The notes under the pieces are model-generated. The model was not told the origin of the DNA. It saw only the letters and a program-made list of their open reading frames with translations, and did not search any database. A stretch of 64,000 bases of DNA from Porticoccaceae bacterium (lineage in GTDB: Bacteria; Pseudomonadota; Gammaproteobacteria; Pseudomonadales; Porticoccaceae). The stretch is taken from assembly GCA_964231105.1 (NCBI GenBank), contig CAXRJI010000034.1:30235-94234 (forward strand), written 5' to 3'. Shown piece by piece: positions 4,436 to 26,226 of the stretch. How positions within the stretch are numbered: position 1 is the first letter of the stretch; each line of letters opens with the position of its first letter. Position numbers and translations under genes: made by a program.

Positions 4436-6340
4436 CTAGTTTGCCCCTATTCTTGTATTTCTGAATGCTGGATTTGACCTGTCACCGGCATATTGACTGC
4501 CGGACTCTTTAGTCTCCATATAAGCATCAATAACTTGGCGCGCTACAGGTGCCGCCGTTAAACTACCATGCTCTCCATTCTCAACAATAAGTGCAACTGC
4601 AATTTGTGGGTCCTCTGCGGGAGCAAAGGCAACAAATAGGGCATGATCCCAATTTCTTTTATCTATTTTTGAGGAATCATATTCTTCCTCTTCATTAATA
4701 CTAATTACCTGTGCGGTGCCAGTCTTGCCGGCCATTTTATATTTTAAACCTTGGCTGACTCCAACAGCTGTCCCCTTATTGGAATGCACAACATCAACCA
4801 TAGACTGGTGTACATAGTCCCAGTATCTCTGATCAATTTGAATATCCTCTTCCACTTGCATGTTTTCAACGTCTACACCATTGATCGCTTTTAACAAACG
4901 GGGCTTAACCATTTTTCCGCGCGATGCAATGCGCGCTGTCATCACAGCCAACTGCAGGGGTGTGGTAAGCATAAAACCTTGCCCAATACTCATATTGATC
5001 GTATCACCATTAAACCAGCCTTCGTTTCGGTATCTTGATTTCCACTGTCTTGTAGGCATGATGCCCTGCTTTTCGCCATAGAGGTCTATGCCAGTTCTTT
5101 TGCCCAAACTAAACTTGGTACTCTCATTGGCTAACATATCAATGCCAATTTTTACCCCTATGGTGTAGAAAAACACATCACAGGATTCAATAATTGCTTT
5201 AGAGAGATCAACACCAGCGCCGTGTCCACCCCGGTCTGAGTTGTGGTCACGCCAGGGGCGTGAAATACCCTCCATATAAAAATACCCTGGGTCATTAATA
5301 GCAAAATCCATATCAAAAATATCATTCTCTAAACCAATCAAGCCAAACAGCGGTTTTAGGGTCGAACCCGGTGGGTACTGGCCACGCAGAGCACGATTAA
5401 AGAGAGGCTGATCCAATGAATTGATTAACTTATCGTAGTCACGTTGGCTGATACCTGAAACAAACGGATTAGGATCATAAGTGGGTGTGCTAACCATACT
5501 CAGAATACCGCCTGTTTTGACATCCATGGCAACTAGCGCGCCACGCGTATCCTTGAGCGCCTCATGGGCAACCGCCTGAAGATAACTATCAATATACAGG
5601 GTAAGATCATCACCTGAGACAGGGTCTGTGCGATCTAAAACACGCATTACTCGACCCCGAGCATTGGTTTCTACTTGCTCAGTCCCCTGACCGCCCAGTA
5701 GATTTTTCTCATAGAATTTTTCTAAACCAATTTTGCCAATAAAATCGATCCCTCGGTACTGATTGAGATCTATGATTTGGCGTTCACGCTCATTAATTCG
5801 TCCCATATAGCCCACTACATGAGCAAAAAGATCGCCACTAGGATAAAAGCGCGTTAACTGCGCACTTACCTCTGCGCCCACCAGTGCGTGACCATTAACT
5901 GCCAGAACAGCCCGTTCTTTTTCGGTTAAATTATATTTTAAGGCAATAGGTTCAAAGGATTTACCCCGCTTAAAGCGCTTCTCAAAGGTTGATAAATCAC
6001 GCTCAGAGATGGTGATCAATGATCTGATTTGAGTGATTAGTTCATCAACTTTTTGCGTGCGGTCAGCAATAATATTAAGGGTAAAAGTTGGACGGTTGTC
6101 CGCCAGAAGAATTCCATTTTTATCAAAAATCAAACCACGAGGAGGAAGGACTGGTCTAATATGTATGCGGTTATTGTTAGAGTTTGTAATGTAGTCCTGA
6201 TGTCTAACAATCTGCAAATCGAAATAGCGGTATATCATAATTGAAGATAACATCAATACCAAAATAGCAGCCACCAACAATCTTACAACAAAGATTTTAC
6301 GTTCTGTATGCGGGTCTGATATAGCAGAATCTTGCAACAT
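4436..6340 (-). CDS. mrdA: Penicillin-binding protein 2
   Basis: PPRGLIFD, YPPGSTLK (SxxK), SCDVFFY, KTGTAQ; upstream of rodA. Confidence 0.95.
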   Translation of the reverse strand: MLQDSAISDPHTERKIFVVRLLVAAILVLMLSSIMIYRYFDLQIVRHQDYITNSNNNRIHIRPVLPPRGLIFDKNGILLADNRPTFTLNIIADRTQKVDELITQIRSLITISERDLSTFEKRFKRGKSFEPIALKYNLTEKERAVLAVNGHALVGAEVSAQLTRFYPSGDLFAHVVGYMGRINERERQIIDLNQYRGIDFIGKIGLEKFYEKNLLGGQGTEQVETNARGRVMRVLDRTDPVSGDDLTLYIDSYLQAVAHEALKDTRGALVAMDVKTGGILSMVSTPTYDPNPFVSGISQRDYDKLINSLDQPLFNRALRGQYPPGSTLKPLFGLIGLENDIFDMDFAINDPGYFYMEGISRPWRDHNSDRGGHGAGVDLSKAIIESCDVFFYTIGVKIGIDMLANESTKFSLGKRTGIDLYGEKQGIMPTRQWKSRYRNEGWFNGDTINMSIGQGFMLTTPLQLAVMTARIASRGKMVKPRLLKAINGVDVENMQVEEDIQIDQRYWDYVHQSMVDVVHSNKGTAVGVSQGLKYKMAGKTGTAQVISINEEEEYDSSKIDKRNWDHALFVAFAPAEDPQIAVALIVENGEHGSLTAAPVARQVIDAYMETKESGSQYAGDRSNPAFRNTRIGAN

Positions 6341-18629: not shown

Positions 18630-19691
18630 TTACCTTAAGGGATAATTTTTACCGTAGCCATCGAGAAGCGCCTTTACCGGCGCGGGCATTCCCAATGATA
18701 AAGGTTTTTTTGGGTTATACCAACGTTGATCACTGTTATCAGCCACCCTGTCTGAGATTCTTTCAACGTAAACAGCCACTGGCTGATAATCTAAATGAAA
18801 ATGACTAAAGGTATGGCGCTGTTTTTCTAAAAGCTGACTGCTTACAGACCCAAATCCTAAGCGCTGAGCAAACTCAGGCAACTGGTCTAGGGTTTCAATT
18901 TGCGGAAATACCCAGAGGCCACCCCACAACCCCGTTGGTGGATTTTGTTGTAACAGTAGCTCACCTTGCTTATTGCAAATCAATAGAAATATGGTTTCTT
19001 TGATGGGTAATTTCTTTTTTGGCTTTTTACCGGGAAAGTCCTGAGGATTGCCCTGTGCATTGGCTAGACAGTCAGTTGCAAGAGGACATTCGCAACAGTT
19101 GGGTGAGGTTTTAGTGCATAGGGTCGCACCCAAATCCATCATCGCCTGACTATAGTCGGCCGTATGTGTTTGAGGACTAAAGCTTTCTGCGATTTCCCAA
19201 AGCTGGTTATGAACAGAACTCTTGCCCGGCCATCCTGCTACTCCAGCAAATCTGGCCAAAACACGCTTTACATTACCATCGAGAATAGCGGCGGGTTTCT
19301 TGAAAGCGATTGAGCGAATAGCGCCAGCAGTAGAACGGCCAATACCCGGCAAATCTGTTAACTGCTCTATATCATCGGGAAACTGTCCATTGTGGGTGGT
19401 ACAGATAATTTGAGCTGTTTTGTGTAGATTGCGTGCCCGTGCGTAATAACCCAATCCAGTCCAGTGATGCAGTACATTATCCAAAGGCGCAGTAGCCAAT
19501 TTATCTACCGTTGGAAACGATTGCATAAATCGTTCAAAGTATGGAATAACTGTAGCAACCTGAGTCTGTTGCAACATAATTTCAGAGACCCATACGCGGT
19601 AGGGATTAATAGATTGCTGCCAAGGTAAATCTGAACGACCGGAGTGCTTAAACCACCCCAGAACAGCCTGTTGAAAATCTTCAGCAATCAT
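18630..19691 (-). CDS. mutY: A/G-specific adenine glycosylase
   Basis: VWVSEIMLQQTQV, W.GLGYYARARNL, HhH LPGIGRSTA, DGNVKRV, FeS motif C..T.PNC..CPL...C. Confidence 0.96.
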   Translation of the reverse strand: MIAEDFQQAVLGWFKHSGRSDLPWQQSINPYRVWVSEIMLQQTQVATVIPYFERFMQSFPTVDKLATAPLDNVLHHWTGLGYYARARNLHKTAQIICTTHNGQFPDDIEQLTDLPGIGRSTAGAIRSIAFKKPAAILDGNVKRVLARFAGVAGWPGKSSVHNQLWEIAESFSPQTHTADYSQAMMDLGATLCTKTSPNCCECPLATDCLANAQGNPQDFPGKKPKKKLPIKETIFLLICNKQGELLLQQNPPTGLWGGLWVFPQIETLDQLPEFAQRLGFGSVSSQLLEKQRHTFSHFHLDYQPVAVYVERISDRVADNSDQRWYNPKKPLSLGMPAPVKALLDGYGKNYPLR

Positions 19692-19759
19692 TATTATTTG
19701 AGTAAATTGGTATTTTGATTATTTGTTTGTTTGAGTGGTTTGCCCTATTTAGTTGCTGG

Positions 19760-21598
19760 TCAATTTAGTCGTCTGTCTAGAAGATTTCTCACCGGATTAT
19801 TCTGACCATTAAGGCCCAAACCCTCGGACACTCGGTCACTCAGCTTATTGACAGCAGATTCCTTTAAAAAGAGCTTTATCAAACTTGCATCTGGCCTGCA
19901 GTTTGCTGGCTCACCTAATCTACCCTCACATACAAAGGGCAAATCACGGTTTTGTAATTTTGCGTTAACAGAACAGCCAGTTTCGCTTGTAGCAGACCCA
20001 GCAACCCATAATGTATTGTTAAGCCTATAAACTTGTTCAATTAGGTTTACTGAGCCCTTGCCTGATAGGTCAATATTGCCAGCGCCAGTTTGAAAATTAT
20101 CAATAATTACACGCCCACCGCTAAGCCTAAAATCAGAGGTTAAATCATTTAACTGCGTGCCCTCAGCCCATTGTTGGTCGCTTTGTTTACCAGACAGCAT
20201 AGCCACTGCAGAGCACAATGTCTGCTCGATATTAATCTCCTTGTAATAGGGCGATAAAACCTGTAGCTGACCAGTGCCTGAAAGAGATTTAACAATAGGT
20301 TGCACCTGATTACCTGAGCCCTGCAGGTTAAACGTCAGATCTAAAAGTCCCTGCATCTTTGGCTGAGACTGAGAGTTATTTTGGGCGACTGAAACTCCCA
20401 GTAGTGATTCAAGATTGAGATTATTTATTGATGACTGAATATTAAAATTAGCCTCTTTACCACGCAAATCAAGCGTTGCAGTAGCATCAATCTGACCCTC
20501 AAAGGCGTCAGCAGCAAACGAATTTACTTTAAAAACATTGCGGTTTCCGAATAGGTTGATATAGATATTGCTCAGCGCTAAATTATTTAGCTGTAGCTGT
20601 CCCAAATGGACTTCCACCTGACTCTTTCCATGCCACAATGCCAGTGGGATTGCCAAAGGCGCAAATAGCGCAGCATTACCATTGCTTGACGTGCCTTTTA
20701 TAAGATAGGCACTTAAATCCAAGTTATCAGCTGACATCATGGTTGTCATTTTGTAGCGCTGCTCATCAATCAACACATTGATATCAACGGGCTGATTATC
20801 AATCACTAATTGTGTTTGGATTTCTGACGTTTGGGTGCGTTCAATACTAAAATTGCTAGTGATACTGACAGACTTAAACGCTTGGGGGTCAACCATCTCA
20901 GGCACATACAGGTCTGGAATTAACTGCTGTAGTGTTGCTAACTGCCCCAACAGGTCGAACCCATTTGTTTGCAACTGACCACTGATATAGGCCATTTGCT
21001 CTGAGCTATTAATCTCACCCATCAACTTGATATCACCTAGCCTCAAACTAAAATCTGACAAAGAGAAGTCGCTTACTCTTTGTTGGGAAAGGGCCATACC
21101 AAGTTCAGTATCGAGATTAAACTTTACTCCCCCAGGAACTTGCAGTGAAATGCTTAGCGGAAATTCTCTGCCATCCAATGCAATATTGCTGGCTTTTAAA
21201 TTAATATCACTGATTTGTAAGGGCAGTTGATTAGCCCTTGAAATAAATAAACGACCCTTTTCAATTGATAGGCTATTGACCGGCAATTGAGCACTTTCCT
21301 CGCTATTAGCTAGCATCGACAGGATACTCACCCCCAACCACAGTTGATCAATTCGTCCTGCTATGGACTGGTCTTTCAAGTTATAGTTAACCTGATTAAG
21401 GCGAATACCTAAGGGGAAGAACTGCCACTCTAAATCTCCGTTTAGAGATAACTCCACACCATTTTGATCTGCGATAGTTTCTATATCACCCCTATACTGG
21501 TTGGGATCAACTGCAACTGCTATGTAGATAATCCCTAATGCCAACAACGTCAAAAGAGTGAGCACAGAGGTGGTTAGCCATTTAATTATTTTTTTCAC
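19760..21598 (-). CDS. AsmA family protein
   Basis: N-terminal TM followed by DPNQYR...L.L.GDL.W.FFP; beta-rich C-terminus; usual asmA-mutY-yggX order. Confidence 0.82.
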   Translation of the reverse strand: MKKIIKWLTTSVLTLLTLLALGIIYIAVAVDPNQYRGDIETIADQNGVELSLNGDLEWQFFPLGIRLNQVNYNLKDQSIAGRIDQLWLGVSILSMLANSEESAQLPVNSLSIEKGRLFISRANQLPLQISDINLKASNIALDGREFPLSISLQVPGGVKFNLDTELGMALSQQRVSDFSLSDFSLRLGDIKLMGEINSSEQMAYISGQLQTNGFDLLGQLATLQQLIPDLYVPEMVDPQAFKSVSITSNFSIERTQTSEIQTQLVIDNQPVDINVLIDEQRYKMTTMMSADNLDLSAYLIKGTSSNGNAALFAPLAIPLALWHGKSQVEVHLGQLQLNNLALSNIYINLFGNRNVFKVNSFAADAFEGQIDATATLDLRGKEANFNIQSSINNLNLESLLGVSVAQNNSQSQPKMQGLLDLTFNLQGSGNQVQPIVKSLSGTGQLQVLSPYYKEINIEQTLCSAVAMLSGKQSDQQWAEGTQLNDLTSDFRLSGGRVIIDNFQTGAGNIDLSGKGSVNLIEQVYRLNNTLWVAGSATSETGCSVNAKLQNRDLPFVCEGRLGEPANCRPDASLIKLFLKESAVNKLSDRVSEGLGLNGQNNPVRNLLDRRLN

Positions 21599-21666
21599 TG
21601 TATTTACCTGTGATAAGACTGGATCCTTGCTAGCTTAAGTTTAACCCAAACCTAGTTACCCTAAAA

Positions 21667-21704
21667 CTAAAAAACCGCAGTTAACATCAACTGCGGTTTT
21701 TTAG
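21667..21704. terminator. Bidirectional-type intrinsic terminator ending the TBDR transcript
   Basis: CTAAAAAACCGCAGTT-aacatc-AACTGCGGTTTTTTAG, a 16-bp stem with A/T tracts on both sides. Confidence 0.88.
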
Positions 21705-21757
21705 CGTTGCTGTTAACTAACTAGCTATTCACTAGCTGTTAACTAGCTTTTGGGACA

Positions 21758-23944
21758 CTAGAAGGAATAGCTAGCCTTTATACCCAGGTTTCTACCAGGT
21801 AATGGCACCTCGTCTTTAACAAAAGAGCTATGATTTCTAGCCACTTCGTCAAGAAGGTTTTTACCAAACAGAGACAGGGTTAAGTTTTGCCCAGGACTTA
21901 GCTCAACTGTTTTTGACAGATTTAGATTTAACATTTTATACCCATCAGTAGCAGTCTCATGCTCAGCTGTATCATTTTGATCTTGAACATCATTGAGAGA
22001 CAGTGAGGCTCTTAGCCCATCCTCTACATAGGAAACTTTGTAGAGATTTCTATCGGGAACCATGCGCAGGATATTACTGCCATCGGCAAAGGTACCTGAA
22101 ACTGAATCCTTGGCAAAAGATAGGGTCAGTTCACCACGCGCTAGCTCAAAGGTCTTACCGATCTCTAGTTCATAGCCATCCAATTCAGCGTCTTGTTGCA
22201 CATACTCAGCATGAATTAAATCACCATGATCATGGGGATCAACAGCATTGGGGTCTTCATTAGGATGGTCATCGTCATCATCGGGATGCCCCTCGTCATG
22301 ATCTTCCTCGTCCAATAAGTAGATATAGTTATCGACATCATTTTGGAAGAAGGTTAAGGCGGCGTAGAAACCCTCATTTTCATAGTTAAAGCTCAGATCA
22401 ATATTATTGGAAGTTTCGGATTGCAAATTAATATTGCCTTCTTCATACCTAGCCGTCGATAGGTGAGGCCCATCCATTAGAAGTTCTACTGCTGTAGGTG
22501 CCCTTTCAACACTAGAAAGACCAATATTGATCTTTAACTGATCACTGATATCCGTACTTAGGCTTAAGGCAAAACTGGTGCTGTTGATATCTTTTTCAAA
22601 GGACTCCAGTTCACCATCATGATTAAGCGACCCTTTACGGCTGATTTGATCATGCCGAATACCAAAATCAAGATGATACGCATCGAACTCTTTATCAACA
22701 TAATAACCCAGTGTTAATTCATCACTTTGTGTTGGATTAATAAAGGCTTCTTCACCGATTACAGAGACATCTTCTTTTGCAACGTTAAGCGCTATCTTTT
22801 GCGACACTGTGTCATTGCTTAAATCAAATATAGCACGGTATTCCGTAGCATCATTATTAAAGGTTGTTGGGCCCTCTTCAGTATGCCCTTCCTCAGCAAT
22901 GTGTTGTTCAGTATGGGAATATTCAGAATCACGGTAGTGATAGTCAACTTTTTTCAGCCAACCATTACCCACATTAAATGAACCTCTAAAGCTTAGAACC
23001 TCAGACTTTGTATCAGCAAAGATTCTTTCTTCTTCATGATCATCATCCTCTGGATGATCCTCATCTTCTGGGTGATCCTCATCTTCTGGATGGTCACCAT
23101 CTTCTGGATGATCATCATCCTCGGGATGCTCATCACCATGAAAAGGAATACCATAGAGGCTTTCATTATCAGTATAAGCAAGACCAACAAAACCCCAGTC
23201 TCCAGTTTTAGACACGCCCAGACGAGAAAAGTTAAACTCCATATCGGTATTGCTTAGAGAATCGCTTTCTTCCTCGTCGGGGTGATGCCCATCACCCTCT
23301 CCCTCATGGCTAATTGCGCCCTCGGGAATATCGTAGTTTTCGAACTGCGAGTCTTTATGGGCAAAACTTAGATTTAGACCACCCACATTATTTTGATAAG
23401 AAAGATCATAACCGTCCCCATCATTTACTGATTGGGTTTCCAAGCCAAGTTTAAATGTAGGCTTTTCAAAGTTTTGTTTGGCAATGGTGTTATCTACAAT
23501 ATTAATAATTCCGCCAATACTGCCATTAGAATAAAGTAGCGAGGAGGGACCTCTAACCACTTCTATTTGCTGAATATTATTCATATCAACATCATTGATA
23601 TGATCTGGACCAAGACCCGAAGCATCTCTAACCACAACACCATTATTAAGAATTTTTACTCGGCTACCAGACATACCCCGAATAATGGGTTGACCCACGG
23701 CTGCGCCGTAGTCACTGGTTGATAGACCCACCAAATCACCTAAACTAGCACCCAAACTCTGGGTTGCATCATTGGCAATGGCGCTACCATCAACAATATG
23801 CAATGGGTTGGAGATGCTATCTGCTGTAGCATCAATCAATGACGATGTAACAATAATTTCTTCAATATCACCGGCCAATGCGCCAGTCGACAAATGCATA
23901 ACGCAAGCTGCCAGAGGCAACTTTCTCGCGATAAACTTATTCAT
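21758..23944 (-). CDS. TonB-dependent receptor, ZnuD-like (zinc/metal uptake)
   Basis: TonB box IEEIIVTS; plug SLG..L..L.G......G.....PIIRGM.G.RVKIL.NG; two His/Asp/Glu-rich loops; C-terminal NHSSFVKDEVPLPGRNLGIKASYSF ending in Phe. Confidence 0.88.
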   Translation of the reverse strand: MNKFIARKLPLAACVMHLSTGALAGDIEEIIVTSSLIDATADSISNPLHIVDGSAIANDATQSLGASLGDLVGLSTSDYGAAVGQPIIRGMSGSRVKILNNGVVVRDASGLGPDHINDVDMNNIQQIEVVRGPSSLLYSNGSIGGIINIVDNTIAKQNFEKPTFKLGLETQSVNDGDGYDLSYQNNVGGLNLSFAHKDSQFENYDIPEGAISHEGEGDGHHPDEEESDSLSNTDMEFNFSRLGVSKTGDWGFVGLAYTDNESLYGIPFHGDEHPEDDDHPEDGDHPEDEDHPEDEDHPEDDDHEEERIFADTKSEVLSFRGSFNVGNGWLKKVDYHYRDSEYSHTEQHIAEEGHTEEGPTTFNNDATEYRAIFDLSNDTVSQKIALNVAKEDVSVIGEEAFINPTQSDELTLGYYVDKEFDAYHLDFGIRHDQISRKGSLNHDGELESFEKDINSTSFALSLSTDISDQLKINIGLSSVERAPTAVELLMDGPHLSTARYEEGNINLQSETSNNIDLSFNYENEGFYAALTFFQNDVDNYIYLLDEEDHDEGHPDDDDDHPNEDPNAVDPHDHGDLIHAEYVQQDAELDGYELEIGKTFELARGELTLSFAKDSVSGTFADGSNILRMVPDRNLYKVSYVEDGLRASLSLNDVQDQNDTAEHETATDGYKMLNLNLSKTVELSPGQNLTLSLFGKNLLDEVARNHSSFVKDEVPLPGRNLGIKASYSF
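23039..23128 (-). repeat. 5 x 18-bp tandem repeat encoding HPED(D/G/E)D
   Basis: Plus-strand units atcatcatcctctggatg / atcctcatcttctgggtg / atcctcatcttctggatg / gtcaccatcttctggatg / atcatcatcctcgggatg. Confidence 0.95.
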
Positions 23945-24012
23945 AATGTTTCCTCTAAATATATATCTTATGCGCCAATTTCAGGCGCCAATTGACCTCC
24001 TTTTAAAAGAGG

Positions 24013-24438
24013 CTAAACGGATAATCTAGAGGTTTGAGGGGGTGCTCTGGCGAGAAAAGCTGCACGGGGTGCAGAATAAAAAGAACGAGATAATACAACG
24101 AGTTCGTTTGAGACAAGCGCTGCATAATCAATGGCTAAGTAATCAGGCGCAACACTGGAACTACTATTTTGCAGAACGGTATAACTACACTGCTCAGCAC
24201 TAAAACCATAATGCTTAGAATTTTTTGAGTGCTGAGAATCTTCCCCATGATCATGATGCTCTGCGTGCTCGTGATGGCCAGCATGGTCATAATGGGCGGC
24301 ATATAAGAAGTCACCGGAATGATCATTATGATCATGGGCAACTTCAAGCGTGGTTCCCAGACCCAGCATAAAGCTGAGAAAAACCACAACAGCTAATCTA
24401 AAAGATTCTTTGCCTGTATAATTATCACGAAGGGACAA
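24013..24438 (-). CDS. His-rich membrane-targeted leader protein with C-terminal RAPP motif (DUF2946/CruR-like)
   Basis: Likely TTG start at 24438 with GGGGTG upstream (the ORF-track start 24570 overlaps hisB). Hydrophobic segment, then AHDHNDH...HYDHAGHHEHAEHHDHG, then ..FLARAPP (24037-24048). Lies 68 bp upstream of the TBDR. Confidence 0.72.
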   Translation of the reverse strand: MSLRDNYTGKESFRLAVVVFLSFMLGLGTTLEVAHDHNDHSGDFLYAAHYDHAGHHEHAEHHDHGEDSQHSKNSKHYGFSAEQCSYTVLQNSSSSVAPDYLAIDYAALVSNELVVLSRSFYSAPRAAFLARAPPQTSRLSV

Positions 24439-24471
24439 TTTTCGCGTGCACCCCAAAAAAATAAGCCGGAA

Positions 24472-24501
24472 ATTGTAGTTTGTTTTAAATTGTAAAATCA
24501 A
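24472..24501 (-). promoter_or_regulatory. Candidate sigma70 promoter for the leader ORF/TBDR
   Basis: Minus strand TTGATT-18 bp-TACAAT; -10 about 33 bp upstream of TTG 24438; back-to-back with the hisB -10. Confidence 0.4.
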
Positions 24502-24514
24502 ACACTTTTGCGCG

Positions 24515-24520
24515 TATAAT
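24515..24520 (+). promoter_or_regulatory. -10 element of hisB
   Basis: TATAAT flanked by GC-rich GCGCG/GCGCAC, about 30 bp before the hisB ATG. Confidence 0.55.
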
Positions 24521-24551
24521 GCGCACCTAAAATTCGTTATTGGAGAATGTA

Positions 24552-25145
24552 ATGACTGAGCGCACCGCAACCGTAACGCGCGATACTTTGGAATCTCAAA
24601 TTACCGTTACGATTAACCTAGACGGAAGCGGAAAAGCCAATTTAAATACCCCAGTGCCTTTCCTAAATCATATGCTGGATCAAATCGCTCGTCATGGTTT
24701 AGTGGACTTGGATATTCAAGCAGCTGGTGATACAGAGATTGATGACCATCACACAGTTGAAGATATAGGTATTACTCTGGGCATGGCCATATCAGAGGCT
24801 ATTGGCGATAAAAAAGGCCTGACCCGCTATGGTCACGCCTATGTCCCCCTTGATGAAGCACTGTCGCGAGTCGTTATGGATTTCTCAGGACGTCCAGGCC
24901 TTATTATGCATGCAGATTTTTTACGCAGCCATGTGGGTGGCTTTGACGTTGATTTAACCAGAGAATTTTTCCAAGGCTTTGTAAATCACAGTTTAGTGAC
25001 ACTGCATATTGATAACTTGCGAGGGGCCAATGCCCACCATCAGGTCGAAACAATTTTTAAGGCCTTTGGTCGTGCTTTGCGTATGGCTATTAATTTAGAC
25101 CCCCGCATCAGTGGTGTTACTCCCTCTACTAAAGGCACACTTTAA
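24552..25145 (+). CDS. hisB: Imidazoleglycerol-phosphate dehydratase (monofunctional)
   Basis: [46 protein letters not shown]; SD GGAG before ATG 24552. Confidence 0.97.
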
Positions 25146-25177
25146 ATAAACCTACGACTTAGTAATCAGCATTTAAA

Positions 25178-25202
25178 GGGGATTTTTAGGATAAAAATCC
25201 CC
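25178..25202. repeat. Perfect 11-bp hairpin between hisB and hisH
   Basis: GGGGATTTTTA-GGA-TAAAAATCCCC. Confidence 0.8.
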
Positions 25203-25225
25203 ATCTGCTAACTAGATAAACTTTT

Positions 25226-25876
25226 ATGAGCGACTTCCGAAGCCACATAGCCATTGTCGATTATGGAATGGGTAATCTCCATTCAGTTGCCAAAGCACTG
25301 GAGCATGTTGCCTGTGGTTCAATAATCACTGTTACCTCTGACGCCAAGGTTGTTGAAGAAGCAGATCGGGTGGTTTTTCCAGGTGTAGGAGCAATTCGTG
25401 ACTGCATGCATGAAATCAAACAACTCAGGTTACAAGATGTGCTGAGCAAAGCTATTACAGAAAAGCCCGTGCTTGCTATTTGTGTGGGCATGCAGGCTTT
25501 AATGAGTCACAGTGAAGAAAATGGCGGTATTGACTGCCTTAACCTATTACCAGGCAATGTAAGATTTTTTGGTAATGATCTAGTGGATGGGCAAGAAAAT
25601 AAGCTCAAGGTGCCACATATGGGTTGGAATAATGTTTATCAAACTCAAGAGCACCCCCTATGGCAGGGCATTGAGCAGGACAGTCGATTTTACTTTGTGC
25701 ACAGTTACTATGTGGACGCGGTTAACAATCCTAATCTTGCGGCAACCTGCGGCTATGGACTTGAATTTGCCGCCGCTGTTTGTCAAAAAAATCTCTTTGC
25801 TGTGCAGTTTCATCCCGAGAAAAGTGCTAGTGCTGGGCTGCAATTGTTGCGAAACTTTTGTCAATGGTCGGGTTAG
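25226..25876 (+). CDS. hisH: Imidazole glycerol phosphate synthase glutaminase subunit
   Basis: DYGMGNL, FPGVGA, ICVGMQ, KVPHMGWN, YFVHSY, QFHPEKS. Confidence 0.96.
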   Translation: MSDFRSHIAIVDYGMGNLHSVAKALEHVACGSIITVTSDAKVVEEADRVVFPGVGAIRDCMHEIKQLRLQDVLSKAITEKPVLAICVGMQALMSHSEENGGIDCLNLLPGNVRFFGNDLVDGQENKLKVPHMGWNNVYQTQEHPLWQGIEQDSRFYFVHSYYVDAVNNPNLAATCGYGLEFAAAVCQKNLFAVQFHPEKSASAGLQLLRNFCQWSG

Positions 25877-25914
25877 CACTAACAAATAATCTTGATAAAG
25901 GCATAGACTTCAAA

Positions 25915-26226
25915 ATGGTCTCCCAAGACAATACTGATGCATTAGTTGAACGTCTTAATGCTGAAACGGCAAAAATACGCTGGCATGAACTTCAAAAACA
26001 TTATGCAGCTGGTAACTTGCTGGGGGCATCTGCGGATAAGGACCTAATTAAGGTCGCTATCGCTTTCCATCAGGACAATACAGACCTGGTCAAAAATTGG
26101 CTGGCCAGTGGCTCTCTATTTGAAGTCAGTGATCAGCAAGCGCAACGCTGGTTCGAAAACAATACGGAGTTATGGGCAGTAGTGATACCACCTTTTGTTC
26201 TAGTTCAAGAAGTAAAGGGTGAGTAA
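25915..26226 (+). CDS. DUF2288-like protein
   Basis: W.EL..H, DL..VA.A...D....V..WL, WAVVIPPFVLVQE pattern; ATG 25915 preferred. Confidence 0.7.
   Translation: MVSQDNTDALVERLNAETAKIRWHELQKHYAAGNLLGASADKDLIKVAIAFHQDNTDLVKNWLASGSLFEVSDQQAQRWFENNTELWAVVIPPFVLVQEVKGE

Follow-up and report, generated by a model that had tools for sequence, protein, structure and literature searches.

A putative RAPP arrest-peptide leader, remotely related to DUF2946 metal sensors, upstream of a ZnuD-like TonB-dependent receptor gene in Porticoccaceae

CruR (Bp2923) of Bordetella pertussis is a DUF2946 upstream open reading frame (uORF) that controls the TonB-dependent copper transporter BfrG/CrtA (PMC9426467, PMC12914433) and is defined by a CXXC motif, a RAPP motif, a spacing of ~45 residues, an export signal and first position in copper-related operons. 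The motif-RAPP spacing (45, give or take 1–2) was shown to matter (PMC9426467), arrest at RAPP was shown by toeprinting and found to be resistant to elongation factor P (EF-P; PMC12992588), and CruR acts via Rho in a GC-rich spacer of 162 nucleotides (nt), the stall being released by copper. CutF of Rhodobacter capsulatus is the DUF2946 leader of cutFOG (PMC9973294, bioRxiv 10.1101/2025.02.05.636593). CutF-like clusters with His-only or Cys+His motifs were described by Öztürk et al. (PMC9973294), who listed TonB-like neighbors and suggested Ni/Co sensing for clusters adjoining HupE/UreJ genes, and RAPP/RGPP uORFs were found to be enriched upstream of TonB receptors by Fujiwara et al. (PMC12992588). 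Here, an open reading frame (ORF) located directly upstream of a gene for a ZnuD-like TonB-dependent receptor (TBDR) was analyzed, in which a first-pass annotation, made from the sequence alone, had recognized a candidate translational metal sensor. It lies on a 64,000-nt stretch of DNA from a Porticoccaceae bacterium (assembly GCA_964231105.1, contig CAXRJI010000034.1, positions 30,235 to 94,234), hereafter called the window.

On balance, we lean toward reading this ORF as a cis-acting leader that encodes a nascent-chain metal sensor of the DUF2946 (CruR/CutF) type and sets the expression of the ZnuD-like receptor, which would be on while the leader is stalled and off once metal releases the stall. 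The more general claim contained therein, that the ORF is a regulatory arrest-peptide leader for the receptor, is made with considerable confidence.

All features are collected in Table 1. Those that the first-pass annotation had listed, namely a hydrophobic N-terminus, a dense His cluster, one Cys and RAPP seven codons before the stop, are all present in the sequence, and the same-direction TonB receptor was confirmed 68 bp downstream (spacer 24012–23945, receptor ATG at 23944); the span given there, 23944–24438, runs from the ORF across the spacer into the receptor gene, of which it includes one base. The predicted export segment consists of an n-region with K/R, the hydrophobic core LAVVVFLSFMLGLGTTL (residues 15–31; helix at residues 9–27 in AlphaFold2) and the end ...EVA before His35 (codon 24334–24336). 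A putative signal site of the type small-x-A/H, the slash marking the site, follows the hydrophobic core in nearly all members of the family described below, the N-termini of the homologs reading M-x5-8-LLLSLLLGLSTTxSxA/H; the window protein has E at −3. The sole Cys of the window leader is C84 (24189–24187), and RAPP is followed by seven codons (QTSRLSV) and TAG. By analogy with the CruR toeprint (PMC12992588), the predicted stall is one in which the P site holds Pro133 and the A site Pro134.

From a few close homologs first, and then from 49 relatives recovered by a profile search, a family of 50 proteins was assembled, all of them from marine metagenomes or from metagenome-assembled genomes (MAGs) of Porticoccaceae/SAR92. 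The close-relative profile (A1) had no match among species-representative genomes and gained just 3 remote clusters in an exhaustive representative search; it was a word-indexed profile search (A3) that revealed the family, and a subset profile (A5) retrieved 15 Porticoccaceae loci. Anatomy, conservation and family relationships, as well as the helix covariation given further below, are direct observations on these sequences. RAPP, Cys84, His35 and Gln90 are invariant in all 50 proteins. The Cys stands exactly 47 residues before the Arg of RAPP (46 intervening residues) at 31 of 31 loci and in 50 of 50 proteins, with zero indels, while the stretch from His35 to the Cys varies between 11 and 51 residues and contains 3–15 His. 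This combination of a fixed Cys-RAPP distance and a variable His linker fits a putative positional nascent-chain sensor better than a folded protein. Position C+3 is occupied by T (44 proteins), S (3) or A (3) and never by C, so that the motif is CxxT/S/A and not CxxC; a single Cys is found in 35 of the 50. RAPP alone is near chance (3 occurrences in the six-frame translation of the 64-kb window vs 1.4 expected) and stands above it because it is kept in every homolog, always 1–7 residues from the stop (1, 3, 4 or 7 residues follow it).

The window leader was scored at 21.3 bits (E 5e-4) by the Pfam DUF2946 model (PF11162; cut-off 23.7 bits), with the C-terminal two-thirds of the model aligned, and matches at E ≤ 1 were obtained for 19 of the 50 family members, the best at 5e-6; a weak CzcI-family match was also returned for the leader. 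The DUF2946 relationship that the first-pass annotation had supposed thus holds as a remote one at family level, the window protein itself falling short of the cut-off. Its picture of a CruR-like leader with His replacing the Cys ligands was retained as to RAPP, the ~45-residue spacing and the downstream TBDR, and had to be amended as to the ligands, one Cys being invariant and the module consisting of Cys plus His. Judged by sequence, the family is related to DUF2946 at a distance, for the most part below the threshold; it would function like CruR/CutF but is not counted as a member of the CruR family.

For the receptor, NCBIfam ZnuD (NF038289) is the best model, at 272 bits and under its cut-off of 950 (next model 113 bits), and the best PDB match is N. 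meningitidis ZnuD 4RDR (E 6e-42). D114, H115 and H494 of the receptor align with D113, H114 and H513 of the 4RDR chain, which correspond to the published zinc ligands D99, H100 and H499 provided that the numbering of the chain runs 14 ahead; the fourth zinc ligand of ZnuD, E340, is in an unaligned stretch of the comparison. An orthologous receptor (62–72% identity over the available N-terminal parts) is located 66–85 nt 3′ of the leader on the same strand at every locus with enough flank except L008. The conservation of RAPP and of a downstream TBDR, on which the reading of the first-pass annotation depended, was hence borne out with this one exception.

The segment from RAPP to the receptor start folds with z = −4.3 relative to shuffles, and its minimum free energy (MFE) structure pairs 24032–24024, termed the anti-Shine-Dalgarno (anti-SD), with 23960–23952, the Shine-Dalgarno (SD) region of the receptor, in a helix that encloses two hairpins. 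The anti-SD/SD duplex of the window has −12.8 kcal/mol and ranks in the top 0.5% of sequence windows. At 18 of 23 loci, pairing between the 26 nt after RAPP and the SD region is in the top ~3% of locus windows, and the closing anti-SD:SD helix is part of the MFE structure at about 20 of the 23. Cognate pairs were more stable than non-cognate pairs (−9.15 vs −7.67 kcal/mol), with a permutation p = 0.0005 that is not corrected for phylogeny. The helix comes in three covarying flavors, CCUCU:AGAGG (in full, CCUCU(A/G)A with U(U)UAGAGG), GUCUCU:AGAGAC (in full, GUCU(C/U)UAAA with UUUAGAGAC) and AGCGUCU:AGACGCU. The anti-SD nucleotides are kept whether they are coding, hold the stop codon or lie 3′ of the stop: in some clades the leader stop is inside the anti-SD (…CUC UAA A), in others the anti-SD comes just after the stop (UUU UAG UCUUUAAA), and in the window clade another reading frame makes it Thr-Ser-Arg-Leu and the stop comes four codons further on. 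From a MAFFT alignment, RNAalifold recovered the central hairpin alone, with compensatory changes at 4 of its 5 pairs; the outer helix was missed because the register of the anti-SD:SD pairing shifts between clades, and was therefore tested locus by locus.

If Pro133 is in the P site and counting begins at the first base of its codon, the anti-SD spans +10 to +18. The footprint of a ribosome on mRNA extends to about +15 nt, and toeprints appear at +16/17. A RAPP-arrested ribosome would therefore cover the CCUCU that masks GAGG. The RNA anatomy thus points to a predicted unmasking of the receptor SD as in CutF/SecM, rather than to Rho-dependent termination in a long spacer as in CruR, and SD unmasking, the best-supported coupling, is considered probable.

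Two further elements of this region were tried and discarded. A 7-codon mini-ORF (TTG, M-A-P-E-I-G-A) behind a perfect decoy SD AAGGAGGU at 23972–24012 is not conserved in L001–L003, and a terminator-like hairpin within the leader (24074–24060) is not conserved in L001. At the position of spacer hairpin 1, L001–L003 keep a hairpin with changed sequence.

Table 1. Features of the leader-receptor locus in the window (positions of the 64,000-nt stretch)
Feature	Position	Strand	Remarks
Leader ORF, 141 aa	24013..24438	minus	TTG 24438-24436 to TAG 24015-24013; family of 50 homologs
N-terminal export segment (predicted), residues 1-34	24337..24438	minus	sequence, AlphaFold2 helix and homologs
His-rich linker, residues 35-76	24211..24336	minus	13 His within 42 residues
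Sensor core C84-S-Y-T-V-L-Q90	24169..24189	minus	C and Q invariant, V at least 90%
RAPP arrest motif (predicted), R131-P134, AGA GCA CCC CCT	24037..24048	minus	50/50 homologs
Anti-SD CCUCUAGAU, leader codons 136-139	24024..24032	minus	9 nt, starts 4 nt after second Pro codon
Spacer hairpin 1 (CCUCUUUU/AAAAGGAGG)	23995..24012	minus	3′ arm is SD-like decoy; specific to window clade
Central spacer hairpin GCGCC-UGAAAUU-GGCGC	23972..23988	minus	inside anti-SD:SD helix; RNAalifold in 20 loci
Receptor Shine-Dalgarno region AUUUAGAGG	23952..23960	minus	GAGG ends 7 nt before ATG 23944
ZnuD-like TBDR, 728 aa	21758..23944	minus	plug and barrel, His/Asp/Glu-rich loops
18-nt x 6 tandem repeat, HPEDxD loop of receptor	23028..23135	minus	within receptor gene
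Candidate sigma-70 promoter, TTGATT-18-TACAAT	24472..24501	minus	consensus scan alone; weak; not enriched over shuffles

In the mechanism that we propose, the leader would be translated and its hydrophobic N-terminus would send the chain to the Sec translocon, and the ribosome would arrest by default with Pro133/Pro134 of RAPP in the P/A sites. During arrest, Cys84 (49 residues from the peptidyl-transferase center) would be at or beyond the periplasmic mouth of SecY, as would the His/Glu residues just N-terminal of it. The arrested ribosome, reaching ~+15 nt along the mRNA, would occupy the anti-SD CCUCUAGAU at +10 to +18, by which the receptor SD AUUUAGAGG would be freed and the receptor translated. 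Upon binding of the cognate metal to the exposed His/Cys module, the arrest would be released, as in CruR, the ribosome would read the last 7 codons and leave, the anti-SD:SD helix would re-form with the central hairpin inside it, and the importer would no longer be translated; Rho polarity or decay of the untranslated receptor mRNA may come next.

As to the cognate metal, our guess is that Zn(II) is most likely, because the receptor is ZnuD-like and three zinc ligands are aligned; Ni, Co and Cu are less likely candidates, of which Cu and Ni are kept open because some members have an H-x-H N-terminus and DUF2946 is biased toward copper. The predicted mature N-terminus is H-x-H, similar to an amino-terminal copper and nickel binding (ATCUN) motif, in at least 12 of the 50 members (about a quarter to half of members). 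Such an N-terminus would favor Cu(II) or Ni(II) over Zn.

Gene order around the leader, with hisH-hisB divergent from leader-TBDR-asmA-mutY-yggX and a DUF2288 gene after hisH, is kept across Porticoccaceae (window 18630–26226; L009–L016), which places the window in this family; within the window, hisB, hisH and the DUF2288 gene are divergent upstream neighbors of the leader, and asmA and mutY follow downstream. At the exceptional locus L008 (474–601), the leader is of the same type as in the near-identical relative L009, but the two sequences part halfway through the spacer hairpin, from where L008 runs on into a convergent ppx gene and has no receptor; this is probably a chimeric scaffold or a rearrangement. 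In the receptor of L005, an (HDD)n run is found in place of the HPEDxD repeats, which indicates that the metal loop is a rapidly evolving low-complexity array.

The leader of the window starts with TTG without a good SD, the alternatives being GTG 24387 and ATG 24369. What speaks for the TTG is solely that its frame stays open, at equal length, in the diverged relatives L001 and L002. The window clade has AAA (K10) where other clades have ATG (window 24409–24438), so that its start is to be sought further upstream (TTG 24438) or downstream (GTG/ATG). In L030 (~4985–5000), L025 (141–184) and other non-window loci, the leader ATG has no SD and stands 7–16 nt after a TATAAT-like hexamer, a closeness that suggests a leaderless mRNA, or one with a very short 5′ untranslated region, for the sensor ORF. 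In L003 (150–480) the upstream sequence differs and the hydrophobic N-terminal segment is absent (MNYDYLQTHNHDDH...); the upstream DNA of this locus contains ATGTTATAATAG, which resembles half a Zur box. In agreement with the first-pass annotation, which had seen no Zur box, zero matches to the Zur/Fur consensus with ≤3 mismatches were obtained anywhere in the window, a weak negative since this consensus may not match the Porticoccaceae Zur motif. AT-rich palindromes that precede the leader in other clades (e.g. AATGGTATATCATT and TATTATGCTATAATA in L015) were inseparable from promoter −10 elements, hence no operator is claimed.

The leader region is present in assemblies of marine metatranscriptomes, the contigs of which carry no strand or 5′-end information and possibly contain DNA. 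No unambiguous RNA contig was found across the leader to the receptor; the single spanning contig (X6) came from a library of uncertain type. Unitigs from metatranscriptomes and metagenomes break at 24445/24446 in three runs, and other runs have an inserted C after 24450 and single-nucleotide polymorphisms at 24454, 24460 and 24461. A transcription start at 24445/24446 was rejected, since, given these variants, the break is a strain-variation bubble. The window sequence 24439–24461, just 5′ of the TTG, is a strain-variable T/G tract.

Several points weigh against the proposed sensor. The window protein stays below the Pfam DUF2946 threshold, and the family is without the CXXC by which CruR is defined. 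With a TTG that has no SD in the window, and no SD at all in other clades, efficient translation of the leader is unproven. The Zur negative, the metatranscriptome contigs and the permutation test are each subject to the limits given above. Pairing between anti-SD and SD is weak in the L009/L010/L018 clade and in L004 (5–6 bp, −5 to −6 kcal/mol), no better than background, and in the L025/L028 clade attenuation of transcription may act on top of the SD switch. Arrest, export, metal binding, the identity of the metal and the direction of the response are steps that we infer. The polarity in particular is a guess, the characterized relatives being opposite in that copper releases the CruR stall and prolongs the CutF stall.

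The polarity of CutF was weighed in its own right. Metal would then prolong the stall at RAPP, and the SD of the receptor would be exposed only with metal, or a metal complex, in the periplasm, so that the importer would be induced by its substrate or by a different, competing metal. The stem-loop over the downstream SD, the short spacer and the predicted Sec-type signal do resemble CutF, in which copper prolongs the stall and melts the stem-loop, more than CruR, and substrate induction of TonB receptors is well known, FecA being an example. Importers of a metal that is scarce and may be toxic are, however, usually repressed by it, and such repression was measured for CruR-BfrG/CrtA, the sole characterized leader-TBDR pair. 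Moreover, the motif of CutF is weaker and EF-P-dependent, whereas RAPP arrests alone and is EF-P-resistant, which fits a default stall that is released by a signal. Metal-prolonged stalling is accordingly judged unlikely, though it is the chief competitor of the proposed reading.

Coupling through transcription, as in CruR, would take the form of a stalled ribosome that blocks a Rho-dependent or intrinsic terminator in the spacer, release ending transcription and the SD pairing being secondary. The mechanism was shown for CruR, and untranslated receptor mRNA would be prone to Rho polarity anyway. In the L025/L028 clade, in addition, the central hairpin is followed by UUUUUUAUAUUUUU, a U-tract (L025 566–590 and the equivalent in L028), and was called terminator-like. 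The hairpin of the window, by contrast, has no U-tract, and zero terminators were called in its spacer. The spacers of the family are 68–85 nt long, structured and not C-rich, compared with the 162-nt spacer of B. pertussis; at least 50 nt separate a ribosome at RAPP from the hairpin, no conserved anti-terminator alternative was seen, and the element that is conserved and covaries is the anti-SD:SD helix. A termination-based switch thus seems quite improbable as the primary coupling, and unmasking of the SD is preferred.

It might also be supposed that the ORF encodes a secreted His-rich metal-binding protein, such as a periplasmic chaperone, a metal buffer or a partner of the receptor, with RAPP being structural or incidental and without regulatory role. 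A predicted signal segment, many His residues, an invariant His at the predicted mature N-terminus, H-x-H in some members and co-location with a metal importer would all suit such a protein. AlphaFold2 on the alignment of 50 sequences gave a pLDDT of 56 and no confident fold of the leader, and a PDB profile search with the leader family found zero relatives; both are consistent with a positional sensor and not with a folded domain. The His region varies 5-fold and the distance from Cys to RAPP alone is fixed, RAPP is among the most avoided tetrapeptides of proteomes unless it serves arrest, the nucleotides after RAPP are kept in whatever frame they are read and pair with the receptor SD, and the products of CruR and CutF are undetectable or rapidly degraded. 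A stable secreted product is for these reasons regarded as very unlikely to be the purpose of the ORF. Finally, an export monitor of the SecM/ApdA/ApdP type, whose stall would report Sec or outer-membrane biogenesis capacity instead of metal, would account for RAPP together with an N-terminal signal (the hallmark of ApdA/ApdP-type monitoring substrates) and could draw on translocation pulling force as a known release mechanism, but is hardly credible next to a downstream gene for a metal receptor (then asmA and mutY) and not sec or yidC, an invariant Cys/His module at CruR/CutF spacing with DUF2946 similarity, and His-rich metal loops in the receptor itself.

The concept as such is less new than the first-pass annotation assumed, since His-type and Cys+His CutF-like leaders (PMC9973294) and RAPP uORFs upstream of TonB receptors (PMC12992588) are already published. 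We found no description of this CxxT + His family, most of which is missed by Pfam, of its association with a ZnuD-class receptor, or of an anti-SD that abuts the arrest site. Copper is so far the sole periplasmic metal that arrest peptides have been shown to sense co-translationally (CruR, CutF). A stronger claim, doubtful at present and advanced tentatively, is that the abundant marine SAR92/Porticoccaceae clade controls a ZnuD-class importer purely at the level of translation, with a nascent-peptide sensor of zinc, or of some metal other than copper, in place of transcriptional control of the Zur type. If it is true, the leader would be the first sensor of DUF2946 type to rely on one Cys together with His ligands, and the receptor the first importer under a CutF-style RNA switch with CruR-style polarity. 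With its Cys + His chemistry, ZnuD-type target, anti-SD 4 nt from the arrest site and natural compensatory variants, the family is a compact test case, and it could help to explain why metal releases the CruR stall but prolongs that of CutF. It also bears on the acquisition of trace metals in a widespread clade of marine heterotrophs with streamlined genomes, in which cis-acting leaders may be used instead of dedicated regulators.

Compared with known systems, the receptor resembles ZnuD of Neisseria meningitidis (4RDR; PMC4557270) in the plug PDH and the barrel His that align with zinc ligands and in its His/Asp/Glu-rich loops; the similarity is partial, and ZnuD, in contrast to the receptor here, is Zur-regulated and without a leader peptide. 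The proposed disruption of an SD-sequestering helix by a stalled ribosome has its counterparts in SecM-secA, VemP-secDF2 and MifM-yidC2, which, unlike the present leader as we read it, sense translocation activity and are unrelated to it in sequence. With the uORFs surveyed in PMC12992588, the leader shares a small product with a signal (predicted here) and a RAPP close to its C-terminus, encoded 5′ of a TonB receptor, and with these and ApdA/ApdP a predicted arrest with two Pro codons in the P and A sites; that survey is generic, no Cys/His module, metal or RNA mechanism being defined for such a group, and ApdA and ApdP precede sec genes, whereas a TBDR follows here. CutF has in common with the family an exported nascent chain (predicted here), a metal motif ~45 residues from a C-terminal Pro-rich stall site and a stem-loop that covers the SD of the following gene and can be reached by the stalled ribosome, by which it is melted in CutF. 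It differs by its CxxxC, by a weaker, EF-P-sensitive Pro motif, by control of a detoxifying multicopper oxidase and by a stall that is prolonged by metal; the published His-only CutF-like clusters adjoin HupE/UreJ genes and not ZnuD-type receptors. As to CruR, a CXXC is replaced by CxxT/S/A and a His cluster, Rho and a GC-rich spacer of 162 nt by an AT-rich spacer of 68–85 nt with the SD paired to the codons just after RAPP, and a CrtA- or OprC-type receptor by one of ZnuD type with no PepSY_TM gene after it. Shared with CruR are a small first-position ORF directly 5′ of a TonB-dependent metal importer, a hydrophobic N-terminus, a C-terminal RAPP few codons before the stop with a Cys ~46 residues upstream of it, and the expected logic, by which the importer would be on at metal scarcity.

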